From assembly GCA_963773065.1 (NCBI GenBank), contig CAVYZN010000028.1, positions 32,001 through 96,000 on the forward strand: 64,000 nt of DNA. Reading direction: 5' to 3'. This DNA comes from an uncultured Gammaproteobacteria bacterium. Lineage in GTDB: Bacteria > Pseudomonadota > Gammaproteobacteria > UBA9214. This document shows positions 9,436 through 16,611 of this stretch, one piece after another. Positions within the stretch are counted from its first letter, which is position 1. Each line of letters opens with the position of its first letter. The translations under genes and the position numbers were made by a program. The notes under the pieces were generated by a model, which searched no databases, had not been told where the DNA came from, and worked only from the letters and a program-made list of their open reading frames with translations.

Positions 9436-9580
9436 TCAAGGGCGCGGGTGAAGGCGGAAGAATACCGTAGGCGGGACGGCGCCCACAACCGGCAAGGGCC
9501 GAGGCACCCCACCCTTACCTGGCCGCTAGGCATCACCTGCTAAAGCCACCAGTAGCGAGCTCATCGTATGTAACGGGCCA

Positions 9581-9687
9581 AGAGCCGGAGGGGCCGGGCG
9601 AGACGTCGGCCGTAGGGATGCAGGCCGGCGAGCGCTCGCACGGCCTCAACCCTGCGGCCGACGGTCCCGCCCGGCCCCTCCGGCTCT
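9581..9687. repeat. ~107 bp long imperfect palindrome in the leuS/ybeL divergent region
   Basis: AGAGCCGGAGGGGCCGGGCG ... CGCCCGGCCCCTCCGGCTCT outer arms with nested GTCGGCCGTAGGG/CCCTGCGGCCGAC arms. Confidence 0.75.
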
Positions 9688-9784
9688 ACGCCACATGACT
9701 CATGTTTTACTTGACCTGGCAAGCTACACACCGGCGCCGCTTTGGTCCACACTTGTCACTCTGGCAGAACACGAGGCAGGCCCG

Positions 9785-10312
9785 ATGACCGACGAGAAGT
9801 CCACCCGTGAGAAATGGCTGCGGGCCTACGATGACATGATGGTGCGGGTCAAAACGGCGATCGAGGAAGCGGAGGAACACACGTTCCCCGCCATCAAGCG
9901 CCATATCGCCAAGGCCCGCGACACGGCCGTCGAGCTGGAGGAACTGACCAGGGACGAGGCCGAGAAGATTGCCTACTTTCTTGAGCGGGACCTGGAGGAT
10001 GCCGGCAAGCACATGGCCGAGAGCGGCCATGAACTGAGCGACTGGCTGCGTTTCGATATCGGTCTGATCGAGGACCGCCTGCTGGAGGTCCTGTTGAAGG
10101 TCGCCGACCATACCCGCCTCGACATGCTGCAGTTTGAACGCGACCTCAAGGAAGGGCCGCTCTACAACGCCGGCGAGGTCACCGGTCCCGGCACGCTGGT
10201 CTGCAACGCCTGCGGCGAGGTCATCCGCTTCCACTCAACCGGTTATATCCCGGAATGCCCCGCCTGCGGGCACACCGTCTACCATCGCAAGTCCGTCACG
10301 GACGAAATCTGA
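9785..10312 (+). CDS. Zinc-ribbon protein, YbeL/DUF1451-like
   Basis: C-terminal GEVTGPGTLVCNACG...CPACG zinc ribbon; divergent from leuS like ybeL. Confidence 0.8.
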   Translation: MTDEKSTREKWLRAYDDMMVRVKTAIEEAEEHTFPAIKRHIAKARDTAVELEELTRDEAEKIAYFLERDLEDAGKHMAESGHELSDWLRFDIGLIEDRLLEVLLKVADHTRLDMLQFERDLKEGPLYNAGEVTGPGTLVCNACGEVIRFHSTGYIPECPACGHTVYHRKSVTDEI

Positions 10313-10479
10313 ACCGGCGGTGACCGCACCACTGAAGAATGGATGGGGTCACCCCTTAGCCAGCCGGTGTTAACAGCGTAAGTAAAGCTCTGTTGAACAT
10401 GTCAACATCATAAAACAACAATGCCATTGATACGGTCCTTTCGCACCCGCTTTTTCACTGAGCGTGATGTCGCGGCATA

Positions 10480-10744
10480 ACCCTGCGCATCAGTCACCCC
10501 TCTGGATCAAGATCGAATCGATGGTCTGATTCAATCCCTGGTACCGTGGGTACCCCACAAAATACTCGGTACCGTCCAGCGTCCAAAAATGAGCATCACA
10601 GAATGTATGGCTGGCCCGAAGGCCTCCAACCCTTGGGTGGCTCGCTGGACGGGCGAAGGGCGTATTCAATGGCCGGCCGGGACCTCCAATCAGAATCTCA
10701 TGGTTGTACCAACCCCATTGCCTGGCTGATCCCGGCCGCCAATC
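10480..10744 (-). ncRNA. Candidate bridge RNA (seekRNA) of the IS110/IS1111 element; ends approximate
   Basis: Stem-loop at 10671-10740 holds segments matching both halves of the target. Segments at 10494-10537 match both halves of the donor junction. Confidence 0.7.
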
Positions 10745-11752
10745 TTAACCGAACAGACGCGCGGCATCGTAATGGGTCTGATCGCGTAACATGCAGTAAC
10801 TGGCGCGGGCCAATTTGTGCGCCACCGCCCGGATCGCGACGATACCGCTGGTCTGCGCGCGCTTGCGCTCAAAGAAGCGCTTGGCCCGCGCATCAAAGCG
10901 CACGGCGAAGTGGGCCGCTTCGGAGAACGCCCAGGACAGGTACTTGTTGCCGGCCTTGCGGTTGCCTTCGCCCTTCTTCTTGCCGTTGCTGAGGCGCTCG
11001 CTGTTGACGCAGCGGCAGTACGAGGCGTAATTGCCTGGGCTCTTGAAGCGGGTAATCTCGCCCGTCTCAAGCCAAATGGTCATGCCCAGAATCGGCCCCA
11101 CGCCGGTGATGGTCTGCAAAATCTTAAAGGCCGGCGCCACCCGCGCCGCCGCCAACGCGGCCTGTTCCAGCTCGTCAATCTCCCGCTGGAGCGCCCGCTG
11201 CACGCTCAGCAGGCTCTGCGCCGCCAGCTGGTCGTGCCCGGGCGGTAACGGCACGGCAAACTCCGGCTTGCGTATCAGGCTTGCGCTGATCCGCTCTCCG
11301 GTAGAACGCCAGAGCTGGCTCTGAATGCTGATCAGGCGTCCCGCCGCGATCCGCACCAGTTGCATGCGCCGGCGCAGCAGATCGCGCACCGCGCGTTGCT
11401 CCTTGGGATAAATATACCCCGTCGGCAGTATCCCCAGGCGCATCAGGTGCGCCAGCCAGAACGCATCGTGAAGGTCATCGCTGTACTTCAGGCCCTCATA
11501 CTGGCGCACCGCCGCGGTGTTGACCAACCGCAGCGGGTAGCCGGCATCCTGCAATCCATCCACCAGCCAGTACCAATTGAAGGTCGATTCCACGGCAACC
11601 CCCAGCAGCTCCGCCTTGAACGGCTGCAAGGCCTTCAGCGTCACCGCCAGATCATTGGGCAGCCGCCGTTCAAAAACCCGTTTGTCATCCTCATCAATCA
11701 CCACAACGACGTGGTTGTTGGAATGCAGATCAATCCCGCAGTAAAGTGTCAT
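10745..11752 (-). CDS. IS110 family DEDD recombinase/transposase (335 aa)
   Basis: MTLYCGIDLH, VESTFNW, KYSDDLHDA (DEDD RuvC-like), TITGVG, C-terminal RLSNGK serine and GNKYL; GGAGG RBS upstream of 11752. Confidence 0.95.
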   Translation of the reverse strand: MTLYCGIDLHSNNHVVVVIDEDDKRVFERRLPNDLAVTLKALQPFKAELLGVAVESTFNWYWLVDGLQDAGYPLRLVNTAAVRQYEGLKYSDDLHDAFWLAHLMRLGILPTGYIYPKEQRAVRDLLRRRMQLVRIAAGRLISIQSQLWRSTGERISASLIRKPEFAVPLPPGHDQLAAQSLLSVQRALQREIDELEQAALAAARVAPAFKILQTITGVGPILGMTIWLETGEITRFKSPGNYASYCRCVNSERLSNGKKKGEGNRKAGNKYLSWAFSEAAHFAVRFDARAKRFFERKRAQTSGIVAIRAVAHKLARASYCMLRDQTHYDAARLFG

Positions 11753-11834
11753 AACAGCCTCCTGGGTTGTGTTGAGTGACCAACACCAGTGTATACACCG
11801 GTGCCAACCACTCAGGAGGCTGGCTAGAGGATTA

Positions 11835-11887
11835 TCAGACTCGATTGATCGGATGCACGAAAAACCGTGGTCTGTCCCGATTTTCCC
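11835..11887. repeat. REP-like repeat (right half of the split copy plus a CGTGGTCTGTCCC copy)
   Basis: TCAGACTCGATTGATCGGATG identical to 14215-14235; CGTGGTCTGTCCC is shared with 14315-14327 and 15131-15143. Confidence 0.85.
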
Positions 11888-11922
11888 GAAGGGGACGCCA
11901 CAAATCGCCAAGGAGATGAGAG

Positions 11923-13330
11923 ATGACAGAACGATCCAAAACACTCGCGAAGCTGCCCGAAGGGTTCATCGGGGCGCTCCGCGCCGGGCTCCGGGGCCAG
12001 GTCCTGACCCAGGAAGATGCCGGATACGACGAGGCTCGCGCCGTGTACAACGCGATGATCCAGCGCAGGCCGGGTGCGATCGCGCGGGTCGCGGACGTGG
12101 CGGACGTCATCGCGTGCGTCAACGCCGCGCGCGAGGCGGGCGTGCTGGTCGCGGTGCGCGGGGGTGGCCACAACGCGGGCGGTCTCGGTGTCGTCGACGG
12201 CGGTCTCGTCGTCGACCTCTGCGGTCTACGCGGCATTCGCGTTGACCCGCGGGCCCGCACCGTCCGCGTGGAAGGCGGCGCCACGTGGGGCGAACGTCGA
12301 CCACGCCACACATCCCTTCGGCCTGGCCACACCGTGCGGCTTCATCTCGACCACCGGCGTGGGCGGGCTGACACTCGGTGGCGGCACCGGCAATCTCACG
12401 CGAAGTTGCGGGCTGACGATCGACAATCTGATTTCCGCCGACGTGGTGCTTGCGGATGGGCGCATGGTTACGACAAGCGCCGACGAGCACCCCGACCTTT
12501 TTTGGGCGCTTCGCGGTGGCGGGGGCAACTTCGGCATCGTCACATCGTTCCTGTTCCGCGCCCATCCCGTGAGCATGGTCATCGGCGGCCCCACGTTCTG
12601 GGCGCTCGAGCAGGCCGAGGACGCCCTGCGCGGGTTTCAGAATCTGATCGAAAACGCACCGGAGGAGCTCGGCGGGTTCTTCGCGTTCCTCACCGTGCCG
12701 CCCGTACCGCCGTTCCCGGAGGACCTCCACGGCCGCAAGGTCGCTGGCGTCGTGTGGTGTTTCAACGGGCGCCAGGAGGCCTTCGACCGAACCGTCAACC
12801 CGCTCATCTCGGCCGTGCCGCCGTTACTCCACGCGCCTCACGAGCTCCCTTACCCGGCGCTCCAGTCGTTCTTCGACCCGCTCTATCCGGCTGGGCTCCA
12901 GTGGTACTGGCGCGCGGACTTCATGGGCAGGCTCTCGGACGACGCCATCCGCGAGCACGTGCGGCACGGGGCCACGCTGCCGACGGGGCACTCGACGGTA
13001 CACCTCTACCCATTGAATGGCGCGGCCGCGCGCGTGGGCGCGGGCGACACGGCGTACCGCCACCGCGACGCGTTCTGGTCGCAGGTCATCGTGGGCGTCG
13101 ACCCCGACCCAGGCAACGCCGACACCCTTCGCGACTGGACGGTCGGCTACTACGAGGCGCTCCACCCGTTCTCGACGGGCGCGGCCTACGTGAATTTCAT
13201 GATGGACGAGGGCGCGGATCGCATCCGCGCGACCTATGGGGCGAACTACGATCGCCTCGCGAAGATCAAGCGGCAGTATGACCCCGACAACTTCTTCCGC
13301 GTGAACCAGAACGTGCCGCCGGCCGCGTAG
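11923..13330 (+). CDS. FAD-binding oxidoreductase, berberine-bridge/VAO family (frameshift near 12290)
   Basis: RGGGHN covalent-FAD His motif, GVGGLTLGGG, ALRGGGGNFGIVT and the BBE tail YGANYDRLAKIKRQYDPDN. Confidence 0.9.
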
Positions 13331-13348
13331 CGTCCACCCAAGGAGATA

Positions 13349-14182
13349 ATGGACATGCCACTCTATCTGGATCGTCACTACATTGAAAATATAACCCGCG
13401 AGGTCATTGCCGATGCTCATGAAAAAGATCTGGAGATCCAGGGGAAATATGGGGTTAATTTCCTGACGTATTGGATTGATGAGCCGCGATGTACCACTTT
13501 CTGCCTGGTGGACGCACCCAATAGGGAAGCAATCCGGAAAGCTCATGCGGAAGCGCACGGGGCCGTGCCCAGTGAAATCATCGAAGTCGAATCCAGTGAG
13601 GTCGAGGCCTTCCTGGGTAGAATCAAAGACCCGGTGCTGATAGAAGCGGGGGTAACGTGGGGCAGCGTACCCAGAGACTCGGCCTTTCGTGCGATCATGT
13701 TCACCGACTTGAAGGACTCAACCGCGATGACTACCCAGCTGGGTGACAAGAAGTCGCTGCACTTGCTCCACATTCACAATGCGGTCACCCGCAATGCACT
13801 CCGCGACTACGCGGGTCGAGAGGTGAAGCATCTAGGGGATGGCATCATGGCTTCCTTCGCGTCCATGACGCAGTCTGTCGAATGTGCCATAGCGATTCAG
13901 AGCGCGTTTGCAACGTATAACAGCGAGCACCCGGAGGCCCAATTGCATCTGCGGATTGGCCTGAGCGCCGGTGAACCGGTGGAAGAGGACCACGATTTGT
14001 TTGGGGCAACGGTCCAGTTGGCGGCCCGCCTCTGCGCTCATGCCGAGCCCGATCAGATTCTGGTGGCGCAAAATGTTGTGGAGAACTATTCGGGCGAGAA
14101 ATCGCTGTTCTCTGAGGCAGGCCAGATCACGCTCAAAGGTTTTGATCAACCTGTGCACGTGTATGTTGTCAAATGGCGGTGA
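13349..14182 (+). CDS. DUF4242 (SCO4226-like) domain fused to a class III adenylate/guanylate cyclase domain
   Basis: N-terminal AH-x-x-D, YW, FCLVDAP, H-x-x-AHG; C-terminal IMFTDLKDST, KHLGDGIMA, RIGLSAGE and DLFGATVQLAARL. Confidence 0.85.
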   Translation: MDMPLYLDRHYIENITREVIADAHEKDLEIQGKYGVNFLTYWIDEPRCTTFCLVDAPNREAIRKAHAEAHGAVPSEIIEVESSEVEAFLGRIKDPVLIEAGVTWGSVPRDSAFRAIMFTDLKDSTAMTTQLGDKKSLHLLHIHNAVTRNALRDYAGREVKHLGDGIMASFASMTQSVECAIAIQSAFATYNSEHPEAQLHLRIGLSAGEPVEEDHDLFGATVQLAARLCAHAEPDQILVAQNVVENYSGEKSLFSEAGQITLKGFDQPVHVYVVKWR

Positions 14183-15025
14183 ACGGAAAGGAAACGGATG
14201 GGAAACGGATGGGGTCAGACTCGATTGATCGGATGTGAATTTCCCTATTGGGAATGGATGGTGGATGGGAATCAATCGAAGGAAATGGGGGACAGACCAC
14301 GTTTTGACTAAAAACGTGGTCTGTCCCCCATTTCGCCCCGGCTTTGCCGGTCTTCCCGCATTTCCGGGCATGACGCGTCGTTGCAGCATGCAGGAGACTT
14401 CTACCTTGAAGCGGTCGTTACCCAGGGCGTAATTGCCATTGGTGGCGGTACGAATTTCAGCGATCAGGTTAAGGTCAATGCCGGTGTCAAACAGACGCCG
14501 GTAATTGGCAAGACGCGATGCCTCCGTCTCGACGAGCGCCAGGTATTCGGCATGCGGCGTCAGCCCGTCTCGGCGCGAGCCCTGACCGTTGGCAGGGTAG
14601 CTTGACCAGCGGTATTCCGCCGGGTGTGTCGCCATGCCGGCGCGCACCGGGTTCATTTCGATATACCGGTAACAGGCGAGTACATAGGTGCTTTCCTGAA
14701 CCAGGCAGGAACGGAAGCGGCCTTCCCAGAGAGTGCCGCTGCGCCGGTAGCTGCGGTTGATGTATTGGATATAACGCTGACCGAGGTGTTTCATCAATAG
14801 CGCGGCGCTATTATGTCGTTCCGGGGTGAGGAGCAGGTGTACATGATTTGTCATCTGGCAATAGGCATGTATCCTGCAGCCATAGTTAACAGCCTGCTGA
14901 GCCAGGGTATCGAGATAATAGTAGTGGTAATCGCTGTGGTCGTAGAAGCAGGCGGTGCGATTATTGCCACGCTGGATGATATGCCAAGGTATGCACGGTA
15001 CGACCAGACGGGCACGACGCGGCAT
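13832..15025 (-). CDS. REP-associated tyrosine (HUH Y1, IS200-like) transposase; conserved part ends near 14340 and the ORF reads on through the repeats
   Basis: MPRRAR, HIIQRGNNR, YCQMTNHVHLL (HUH), LWEGRF, YIEMNPVRA (catalytic Tyr) and YRWSS; flanked by palindromic repeats. Confidence 0.9.
   Translation of the reverse strand: MPRRARLVVPCIPWHIIQRGNNRTACFYDHSDYHYYYLDTLAQQAVNYGCRIHAYCQMTNHVHLLLTPERHNSAALLMKHLGQRYIQYINRSYRRSGTLWEGRFRSCLVQESTYVLACYRYIEMNPVRAGMATHPAEYRWSSYPANGQGSRRDGLTPHAEYLALVETEASRLANYRRLFDTGIDLNLIAEIRTATNGNYALGNDRFKVEVSCMLQRRVMPGNAGRPAKPGRNGGQTTFLVKTWSVPHFLRLIPIHHPFPIGKFTSDQSSLTPSVSHPFPFRSPPFDNIHVHRLIKTFERDLACLREQRFLARIVLHNILRHQNLIGLGMSAEAGRQLDRCPKQIVVLFHRFTGAQANPQMQLGLRVLAVIRCKRALNRYGTFDRLRHGREGSHDAIP
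14207..14334. repeat. REP/REPIN cluster downstream of the RAYT
   Basis: GGATGGGGTCAGACTCGATTGAT ... ATCAATCGA, then the perfect palindrome GAAATGGGGGACAGACCACGTTTT-GACTA-AAAACGTGGTCTGTCCCCCATTTC. Confidence 0.9.
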
Positions 15026-15090: not shown

Positions 15091-16611
15091 TCAGTCACGC
15101 GAGTACCGTCGCGTCAGGAAACCATGGAAACGTGGTCTGTCCCCCATTTGCCACACCAGCAGCAGGCACATCACGGTCAGGATCACGACGGGCGTATTGC
15201 CCAACAGCACATAAGGCGTCGCGCCCTGGCGGGGCGTGACGGTTCCCGTGACCACCGCCTCCTCGAACTGGCGGCTGCGGGCGATGACCCGGCCGTTCTC
15301 ATCGATGATCGCGGATATGCCCGTATTGGTGGCTCGCAGCATGGGCCGGCCGGTTTCCTTGGACCGCAGCCGCGCCATTTCCAGGTGCTGGTGCGGCGCG
15401 AGCGAATCGCCAAACCAGCCATCGTTGCTCACGTTGACCAGCAAGGCGGCCTGCGGCAGTGCCCGACGGATCTCCTCGCCGAATACCACCTCGAAACAGA
15501 TCGAGGTGGCCACGGGATAGCCGGCGGCCTCCAGCAGGGGTTGCGTCGCCTCCCCGCCGGAGAAATCCGCATTCGGCACCGCCAGGGCGTCCAGGCTGTC
15601 GCCCAGCACCCGGCGCAGCGGCAGGTACTCGCCGAACGGCACCAGGTGCTGCTTGTAGTAGAAGCGCCGTTCCCCGCCGATGGACACCACGCTGTTGTAG
15701 TAGCGCCAGGTGGCCTGGTCCAGCACCGGAATTCCGGTCAGCAGCACGGCGCCCGACTGGCGCAGCCCGGTTTCGATTTGCGGGATGAGGCTGTCCTGCA
15801 CCTGGTCATAAAACGCGGGTATGGCGGTTTCGGGCCAGACCACCACATCCGTCGCCGGCAATTTGAAGGTGAGTTCCGTATAGCGCGTCAGGGTATGGGT
15901 CAGGTTTCCCGGCGCCCATTTGGTTTCCTGGGCGATGTTCCCCTGAACCAGCGCCACCTTGAGAGGCGCGCCGCGCGCTTCGGTCCATGCAACACGGTCG
16001 AGCAGGTAGCCGCCCGCCCAGATCACGCAGAGGACGATCAGACTCGGCAGGCGCGCCCGGTTTCGCACCAGCGCCACCAGCAAGGCGGCCGTCAGCGCCA
16101 CGGCCAGCCCGACGCCATAGACTCCCGAGAGCGGCGCGTAGCCGGCCAGCGGGCCGTCAATCTGGCTGCTCCCGACAGTCAGCCAGGGAAAACCGGTGAA
16201 CAGCCAGCCGCGCAGCCATTCACTCAGCACCCAGCCGGCCGGAAACGCGACCAGGAGCCGCCAGTCCGCAGCCGGCAGGCAGCGCTTGAGACAATAACCC
16301 AGCAAGGCGGGATACAGGCTCAGAAAGACCACCAGCGCCACCGTCACCAGCACGGCAGCCGGCGCGGGTACATGCCCGTAGGTATGCACGCTGACGTACA
16401 CCCAGGAAACACCCGCGCCGAAGTACCCCAGTCCGAACAGGACACCGTGGCGCAAAGCCTGGCGCGGGCTATCCCGCAGCCACTGGTTGAACAGCACGGC
16501 GAGCGACAGAAACGCGAGCGGGTACCAGCCCAGGGGGGCGAAGGCGGTCACGCCCAGCGCGCCGGCAATCAGCACGAAGATCCCGCCGAAGCGGACAGTC
16601 AGGTTGGTCAC
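15091..16611 (-). CDS. lnt: Apolipoprotein N-acyltransferase
   Basis: GFPW, VQGNI, WPETA, KQHLVPFGEY, ICFE, SNDGWFG and RATNTG motifs. Confidence 0.96.
   Translation of the reverse strand: MTNLTVRFGGIFVLIAGALGVTAFAPLGWYPLAFLSLAVLFNQWLRDSPRQALRHGVLFGLGYFGAGVSWVYVSVHTYGHVPAPAAVLVTVALVVFLSLYPALLGYCLKRCLPAADWRLLVAFPAGWVLSEWLRGWLFTGFPWLTVGSSQIDGPLAGYAPLSGVYGVGLAVALTAALLVALVRNRARLPSLIVLCVIWAGGYLLDRVAWTEARGAPLKVALVQGNIAQETKWAPGNLTHTLTRYTELTFKLPATDVVVWPETAIPAFYDQVQDSLIPQIETGLRQSGAVLLTGIPVLDQATWRYYNSVVSIGGERRFYYKQHLVPFGEYLPLRRVLGDSLDALAVPNADFSGGEATQPLLEAAGYPVATSICFEVVFGEEIRRALPQAALLVNVSNDGWFGDSLAPHQHLEMARLRSKETGRPMLRATNTGISAIIDENGRVIARSRQFEEAVVTGTVTPRQGATPYVLLGNTPVVILTVMCLLLVWQMGDRPRFHGFLTRRYSRD
15128..15148. 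repeat. REP copy upstream of the RAYT, overlapping the lnt 3' end
   Basis: AAACGTGGTCTGTCCCCATTT, nearly identical to 14312-14333. Confidence 0.85.

Follow-up and report, generated by a model that had tools for sequence, protein, structure and literature searches.

The window analyzed here, 64,000 nucleotides (nt) of DNA from an uncultured gammaproteobacterium of the lineage UBA9214 (assembly GCA_963773065.1, contig CAVYZN010000028.1, positions 32,001 to 96,000), carries an insertion sequence (IS) of 1486 bp on the minus strand at positions 10352..11837. With high confidence we regard it as an intact member of the IS1111 group of the IS110 family that chooses its insertion site by means of its own non-coding RNA. 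As judged from sequence, this RNA, a so-called seekRNA or bridge RNA, would be encoded in the non-coding region that follows the transposase gene and would constitute the targeting mechanism. It had been missed by the initial annotation of the window, which described an IS1111-type element inserted precisely into a repeat resembling repetitive extragenic palindromes (REPs). All coordinates refer to the window unless a contig of the genome is named.

The element splits a copy of a repeat that we call family A. The left half of the repeat, GGATGGGGTCA, lies at 10341..10351 on the plus strand and ends in an ambiguous TCA; the right half, GACTCGATTGATCGGATG, continues at 11838..11855 on the same strand. 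As stated in the initial annotation, deletion of 10352-11837 joins the halves to a 29-nt site which also exists as an unoccupied twin at 14207..14235 (plus strand), and identity over 29 nt rules out chance. The extent of the element is given by this joining of the flanks and by its single blastn match in the genome, although TCA at both ends (10349-10351 and 11835-11837) leaves the boundaries ambiguous by up to 3 nt. The element occupies the intergenic space that separates a DUF1451 gene from a gene for a flavin adenine dinucleotide (FAD)-binding oxidase, and the empty twin site is restored exactly, which means insertion without target duplication, as is characteristic of the IS1111 group. Local duplication of the 29-nt copies together with an ordinary cut-and-paste IS making a 3-bp TCA target duplication would also account for TCA on both sides and for two repeat copies in the same orientation only 2.4 kb apart. 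We consider the chance of this close to negligible: the transposase is of the DEDD/IS110 type and not DDE, a single TCA suffices to restore the empty site from the flanks, the junction triplets of relatives often differ between the ends (TGT, CGA and others on the right versus TGA on the left), and the repeat occurs in about 15 dispersed copies.

A perfect 9-bp inverted repeat, TAGCCAGCC (10357-10365) and GGCTGGCTA (11818-11826), lies 5 and 8 bp from TCA, just as had been noted before. On the transposase strand, from which we name the ends, the right end (10352..10373, minus strand) comprises the -35 promoter half TTAACA (10373-10368), the subterminal repeat GGCTGGCTA (10365-10357) and a 5-nt terminal extension AGGGG. 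The left end (11818..11837, minus strand) comprises the -10 half GATAAT (11836-11831), an 8-nt extension and the subterminal repeat TAGCCAGCC (11826-11818). Ends of the IS1111 group are defined by subterminal inverted repeats of 7–17 bp with short terminal extensions; the 9-bp repeat with extensions of 5 and 8 nt has this form, and it is conserved in relatives. For comparison we collected relatives from genome contigs (80) and from metagenome contigs (80), all with 50–71% protein identity. Their ends are strongly conserved: the left end consists of TGATAATCCTC followed by TAGCCAGCC, while in the right end TTGACA and, 2 nt further on, GGCTGGCTA and ATGGG precede TGA or TGT and the flank. The triplet at the left junction is TGA. 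At the right junction, read at 74 loci, it is TGA in 39 and TGT in 24, while CGA, CGC, CGG, CGT, TGG and TGC together make up 11. Since only G is common to all junctions and TG to most, the dinucleotide TG (CA on the plus strand) is the most likely crossover core. Of the TCA core proposed earlier, the observation stands that TCA flanks both ends; TCA is, however, merely the largest possible overlap, and the core probably measures 2 nt.

The transposase gene (10745..11752, minus strand) encodes 335 amino acids plus stop and leaves 393 nt of non-coding DNA after the stop codon and 85 nt before the start codon. Its product matched the Pfam models PF01548 (DEDD_Tnp_IS110, E = 6.8e-18) and PF02371 (Transposase_20, E = 5.5e-16) and reached 184.1 bits with the NCBIfam equivalog NF033542, "IS110 family RNA-guided transposase", for which the cut-off is 140. 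Sequence matches to PDB entries were weak (IS621, E = 4.6e-06; ISCro4, E = 1.3e-07). In an alignment of the transposase with 11 relatives of 50–95% identity, D8, E55, D93, D96 and the block S255-N-G-K-K-K were invariant in all 12 proteins; the serine motif S255-N256-G257 is offset by one residue relative to the ESG of IS621 and ISCro4. With its open reading frame and invariant catalytic residues the enzyme looks intact, in agreement with the initial annotation. The layout described for the IS1111 group combines subterminal repeats with a short left end and, downstream of the gene, a long stretch of non-coding DNA (PMC11187229, PMC11208160). Pfam and NCBIfam matches, subterminal repeats and the long downstream non-coding region place the element in this group, as had been proposed, and to judge by sequence every IS1111 feature that can be tested here is present, the exact spelling of the serine motif excepted. 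Two other, distant IS110-family transposase genes lie elsewhere in the genome, at C32:198776-199783 (30% identity) and C16:71788-72651 (27%).

The non-coding regions of 28 elements could be aligned over their whole length, and RNAalifold applied to 23 of these sequences returned 56 consensus pairs, 33 of them with compensatory changes. A conserved RNA structure thus spans 10440..10741 (minus strand), which we take as the putative seekRNA or bridge RNA in its long form. Its first module, stem-loop 1 (10676..10736, minus strand), is the candidate target-binding loop and would be the equivalent of a short seekRNA. Here a covarying stem (10735-10728 with 10684-10677) surrounds two single-stranded segments that flank a small TGG..CCA hairpin (10711-10701). 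The first segment is the putative 5' target guide CAAUGGGGU (10712..10720, minus strand), complementary to transposase-strand DNA to the right of the crossover, where its partner is ACCCCATTG in the repeat consensus and ACCCCAT at the occupied site. The second is the putative 3' target guide AGAUUCUGAU (10688..10698, minus strand), which has the sense of the left target side followed by TG and the first 2 nt of the left end. For IS1111 seekRNAs a top-strand match located 5' of the bottom-strand match has been described (Siddiquee 2024, PMC11187229), and the guides in stem-loop 1 follow this order. In two elements from one genome, L007 and L016, the non-coding region is enlarged by an insertion of about 150 bases, which separates the RNA region from the right-end repeat.

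We determined how well the target guides of relatives agree with the flanks in which these elements reside. Both ends could be placed for 24 elements; the remaining four of the 28 were dropped as their end motif was not recognized. The 3' target guide matched its own flank at 3.92 of 6 positions on average compared with 2.42 for non-cognate flanks, and the 5' target guide at 7.33 of 10 compared with 5.73, values reached in none of 20000 shuffles in either case. A register-free version of the test with 19 elements gave 0 of 5000 shuffles for each target guide. Clear examples of guides that follow their flanks are L077 (TATAC), L008 (TTAAC and GGTGA), L078 (AAACCGGGA) and L049.

A second module appears to read the ends of the element itself. 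The putative 3' donor guide AGAGGGGUGAC (10492..10503, minus strand) has the sense of the right-end extension followed by TG and the first 2 nt of the right flank, while a tentative 5' donor guide GAGUAUUUUG (10558..10567, minus strand) is complementary to the left end at 7 of 10 positions. In relatives the donor segment reads AGAUGGGUGA and the right end AATGGG-TGA. In the window element GGGG replaces TGGG in both places, the donor guide (10503-10494) and the right end (10356-10352). Right-end extension and donor guide were readable together at 58 loci (a further 16 gave no guide by pattern): 56 carry TGGG in both, two carry GGGG in both, namely the window element and the distant L133 (55% identity), and none is discordant. 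Each 3' guide runs 2 nt past TG into the partner DNA, similar to the handshake guides described for IS621 (PMC13626964). In keeping with such a handshake, the base after TGA in the target guide equals that of the left end in all 24 elements (16 T, 8 A), and the third base of the donor guide equals that of the right junction in 50 of 58. Nested within the donor module lies stem-loop 2 (10572..10653, minus strand), a target-loop-like paralogue with a covarying stem that resembles an eroded duplicate of stem-loop 1. In the register-free test its 5' strand co-varied weakly with the first bases of the right flank (1 of 5000 shuffles) and its 3' strand hardly at all (116 of 5000).

We then mapped the target repeat in the host genome. 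With up to 4 mismatches allowed over 20 positions, family A (consensus CAATGGGGTCAGACTCGATTGATC) gave 17 matches, of which about 15 are credible; one match on C5 and one at C11:355970 appear to be fortuitous. On C8, C11, C18 and C26 copies form four inverted doublets with a spacing of about 50 nt, reminiscent of REPINs (REP doublets forming hairpins). Family A is a REP-like repeat, with a copy number that is low for a REP, and the split halves together with the dispersed family of about 15 copies bear out the claim of a precise insertion into such a repeat. From both target guides of stem-loop 1 we composed the 17-nt site that the RNA would specify. It occurs at 14 genomic sites with up to 3 mismatches, 8 of which are copies of family A, and the best family copies with an intact core form the unoccupied doublet on C8, both with 2 mismatches. 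The right flanks of the relatives L031, L010, L001 and L078 contain short tandem arrays, at the border of which the elements have inserted; the repeat unit opens with the G(A/T)CCC motif of the target, so that the target repeat looks tandemly iterated there.

Nearly all relatives adjoin CCCC and hence sit on a GGGG(T/A)C head. One could read this as recognition of the folded REP hairpin, or of the GGGG(T/A)CA head, by the protein, with the RNA matches secondary or coincidental, and a 2026 preprint describes sequence-plus-structure recognition for ISPpu10. We give this explanation only a slim chance. Past the head, the variable positions change together with the guides, as in L078, L008 and L077, and reprogramming of seekRNAs has been demonstrated experimentally for IS1111 members (PMC11187229).

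The initial annotation had also proposed a promoter that arises only on joining of the ends, and we found it to hold. On the minus strand the joined ends bring together TTAACA (10373-10368) and GATAAT (11836-11831) at a distance of 17 nt, 16 nt of which stem from the right end and 1 nt from the left end, and the resulting promoter matches the consensus at 10 of 12 positions. By the criteria of the scan, no promoter-like site was found on either strand of the linear sequence between 10250 and 12000, where shuffled sequences contain 0.6 on average. Of 78 relatives, 57 match TTGACA at five or more of the 6 positions of the -35 place, and 64 have four or more matches of 6 at the -10 place formed by the joint, GATAAT itself being present in 43. 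Their linear forms show at most 3 matches at the right-end place, and likewise at the left end in all but two elements. The split promoter is therefore conserved among the relatives. Junction promoters are known for ISEc11, IS621 and ISPpu10 (PMC12288879, PMC11187229).

The 5' leader of the transposase gene is predicted to fold into a hairpin (11755..11822, minus strand) where the Shine-Dalgarno sequence AGGAGG (11763-11758) is base-paired to the region of the left-end repeat. The predicted energy of -39.5 kcal/mol corresponds to a z of -4.82 and was reached in 0 of 200 shuffles. Pairing between repeat and Shine-Dalgarno sequence is part of the minimum-energy fold in 35 of 39 relatives, and the inner hairpin covaries. 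According to this predicted fold the leader hairpin may act as a translational brake; a literature search turned up no paper linking IS1111 repeats with Shine-Dalgarno pairing. Going further, one may speculate that the clade uses three guide-RNA modules, with stem-loop 2 (10653-10572) possibly reading the element's own flanks for excision, that it is hard-wired to the GGGG(T/A)CA head and that the subterminal repeat doubles as an anti-Shine-Dalgarno sequence, a combination that we consider rather unlikely. That excision of IS1111 elements requires their own flanks has been reported, though not explained.

Taken together, these features would fit the following course of events. The element would excise as a circle, whose joined ends would assemble TTAACA, 17 nt and GATAAT ahead of the transposase gene. 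With its promoter formed at the junction, the circle would be the main source of both transposase and RNA. Within the RNA the 5' strand of stem-loop 1 (CAAUGGGGU) would pair with one DNA strand right of the crossover and its 3' strand (AGAUUCUGAU) with the other DNA strand left of it. In the second module the guide AGAGGGGUGAC would read the right end of the element, and probably a weaker guide the left end; the 3' guides would extend 2 nt beyond the crossover into partner DNA, as in IS621. The complex would then recombine the circle junction with a CAATGGGGTCAGACTCG-type repeat at the TG/CA core, leaving no target duplication. The sequence comparisons show the anatomy, the membership in the family, a conserved RNA fold, guides that co-vary with flanks and ends, and a conserved split promoter; production of the RNA, formation of the circle and continuing mobility of this copy are steps that we infer.

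One hint of transcription comes from a soil metatranscriptome library, in which a 174-nt contig equals 10497-10669 save one inserted base, although this is not proof. Contigs over the transposase gene from the same run differ at 3–13 positions.

Several observations weigh against the reading of an RNA-guided, mobile element. RNA, circle and second copy have each gone unobserved, and evidence on the circle is limited to assembled contigs. A scan of 9500-15000 with E values up to 1 matched no Rfam model to the RNA; a snoRNA model at E = 0.44 was taken as spurious. The serine motif is spelled SNG, whereas SG or TG is described for the family (PMC11187229). Because the relatives share ancestry, the shuffle tests make the cases look more independent and the results more significant than they are. 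The signal of the donor guide for the left end is weak, 6.81 versus 6.46 pairs of 10, and reached in 15 of 20000 shuffles. Ahead of TGA, only 4 of 6 positions of the occupied site agree with the element's 3' target guide; with a bulge of 2 nt the guide would fit GAGTCTGA perfectly, a speculation of which we made no use. Finally, compared with the 17-nt site that the guides specify, both the occupied site and its twin deviate at 4 positions, while unoccupied copies deviate at 2. The better match of the unoccupied copies points to an RNA tuned to the family consensus and an element that sits in a diverged member.

A blastn search of the host genome, an assembly of 33 contigs with 90.94% completeness and 6.32% contamination, gave no second copy of the element, and 53 other genomes of the host's family gave no match above 72% nucleotide identity; constancy of the insertion site was therefore judged from relatives instead of identical copies. 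These results also speak against mobility, and it is possible, though less likely than not, that a structurally intact copy entered this host a single time, through transfer or an infrequent transposition into a near-cognate site, and has been silent since. Such a history would concern the activity of the element and not its identity. It would be in keeping with the single copy, with the lack of a promoter-like site in the linear form, with a divergent gene on the upstream side that makes read-through unlikely, with a Shine-Dalgarno sequence predicted to be locked in the leader hairpin, and with occupation of a mismatched site while better ones are empty. Against it, reading frame, invariant residues, both repeats and RNA helices are all intact, and close kin of the element exist in metagenomes.

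These kin include proteins 94–95% identical to the transposase. At the level of element loci our comparison contains none closer than about 70–71%, the metagenome proteins of 80–95% being known as proteins only. Assembled contigs of four runs cover the element and nothing else (10349-11839) at 90–97% identity, and in one of these runs contigs leave the element at 11838/11839 into two different flanks. Related copies in at least two other flanks imply that the lineage has moved recently in nature. Parts of the stretch were contained in 20 of 24 listed runs, all of them represented by assembled contigs, and in none did they amount to half of its words. The contigs of the four runs contained no circle joint and no empty-site joint, but contigs cannot reveal rare junctions and their result is silent on activity. 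Three joints listed in the contigs proved to be internal skips in one run with low likeness. A pattern scan of genome contigs for the AGGGG variant of the right end returned 57 loci, nearly all of them chance 16-mer matches and none with the RNA signature, and L177, L188 and L189 are end-like fragments only.

Close to the unoccupied twin site lies a gene for a Y1 transposase resembling REP-associated tyrosine transposases (RAYTs; 14320..15025, minus strand). It matched PF01797 (Y1_Tnp) with E = 1.6e-11 and 44.8 bits against a cut-off of 23, and the NCBIfam equivalog NF047646 with 59.2 bits, which is under the cut-off of 80. Motifs that we take to be the HVH and YRY/YRWSS motifs of such proteins are visible. 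The open frame continues to 13832 and comprises 397 amino acids in total (15025-13832), with homology restricted to about the first 235 residues. Past this point it crosses a REP hairpin and then runs antisense into the end of a cyclase gene (13349-14182); either the natural stop codon was lost or the extension is a chance open frame.

Inverted copies of a second repeat, family B (GGGGGACAGACCACG; 14290-14326 and 15129-15142), stand on both sides of the gene. On the 3' side family B forms a hairpin (14283..14334); the copy at 15129-15142 lies inverted on the 5' side, and a further copy at 11864-11877 lies beside the element. MicroRNA models of Rfam that matched the perfect 23-bp hairpin of family B (14277-14339, E down to 0.0005) score far under their gathering thresholds and are spurious. 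Family A is found on one side of the RAYT gene only, beyond family B, and brackets none of the five RAYT paralogues of the genome. The earlier suggestion that the element uses a repeat maintained by the neighboring RAYT as a safe harbor therefore holds in part. A safe harbor in a REP-type repeat is reasonable as the landing site is intergenic; maintenance by this RAYT is not borne out, the gene being bracketed by family B. Since families A and B share the head AATGGGG..CAGAC, some link of a RAYT to family A is possible. At both sites A is followed by B within 12–55 nt (10341-10351 with 11838-11877, and 14207-14334), and the two may be sister families. Four more RAYT paralogues of 27–49% identity are located at C17:85844-86521, C26:19620-20055, C8:39850-40512 and C11:147976-148608, each between its own inverted repeats, the C26 copy being in two pieces. 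All these repeats, family A included, start with a head of the GGGG(T/A)CA type. On C18 and C19, C-terminal fragments of RAYTs adjoin copies of family B.

We also compared the element with known systems. ISEc11 and other IS1111 elements with a seekRNA are described as having the same kind of DEDD transposase of about 335–340 amino acids, subterminal inverted repeats, a long non-coding region after the gene, insertion without target duplication and an RNA in which the top-strand match lies 5' of the bottom-strand match (PMC11187229), all in common with the window element. The two nevertheless differ: the transposase shares only about 27% identity with an ISEc11-family protein from E. coli plasmids, the target of ISEc11 is another one, and the serine motif SNG belongs to the window element. 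As in our element, a promoter of ISEc11, called Pjunc, is formed only by the joined ends. Pjunc was reportedly described by Prosseda in 2006. The non-coding region of ISEc11 has no evident sequence likeness to that of the element by eye, no covariance-model search having been run. ISPa11, likewise of the IS1111 family, resembles the element by its published description in that it targets a REP, that of Pseudomonas aeruginosa, and has a transposase-bound RNA from the downstream region, where the putative RNA of the element also lies (PMC11187229, PMC11208160). With IS621 and ISPpu10 of the IS110 group the element shares separate target and donor loops, the reading of both strands around a dinucleotide core, 2-nt positions of the handshake type, a REP target and a hybrid circle promoter, as far as these are described (PMC11208160, PMC12288879, PMC13626964). 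IS621 differs in that its RNA is reported to precede the gene, the order of guides is reversed and the subterminal repeats measure only 2–3 bp. The nearest IS-named relative among those searched carries the ISGsu4-family label in NCBI annotation (Paraburkholderia plasmid copies), with 50% protein identity over 99% of the length, far below the level of the same IS. Presumably the element would receive a new name under the ISfinder naming rule.

In summary, targeting of REPs (ISPa11, IS621, ISPpu9/10), guidance by seekRNA or bridge RNA and junction promoters have all been published (PMC11187229, PMC11208160, PMC12288879). The element is thus ordinary for its family and leaves the current picture of the family unchanged. 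The three-module RNA and the leader hairpin may be novelties, although published folds of long seekRNAs may already include a third loop. RNA-guided recombinases of the IS110/IS1111 type are being developed as tools for genome writing, and natural elements with clear assignments of guide, target and donor extend the available catalogue. The dozens of relatives analyzed here provide a co-variation map of an IS1111-type RNA, and for the host genome the element is a further example of an insertion that uses a REP-type repeat as a harmless intergenic landing pad.

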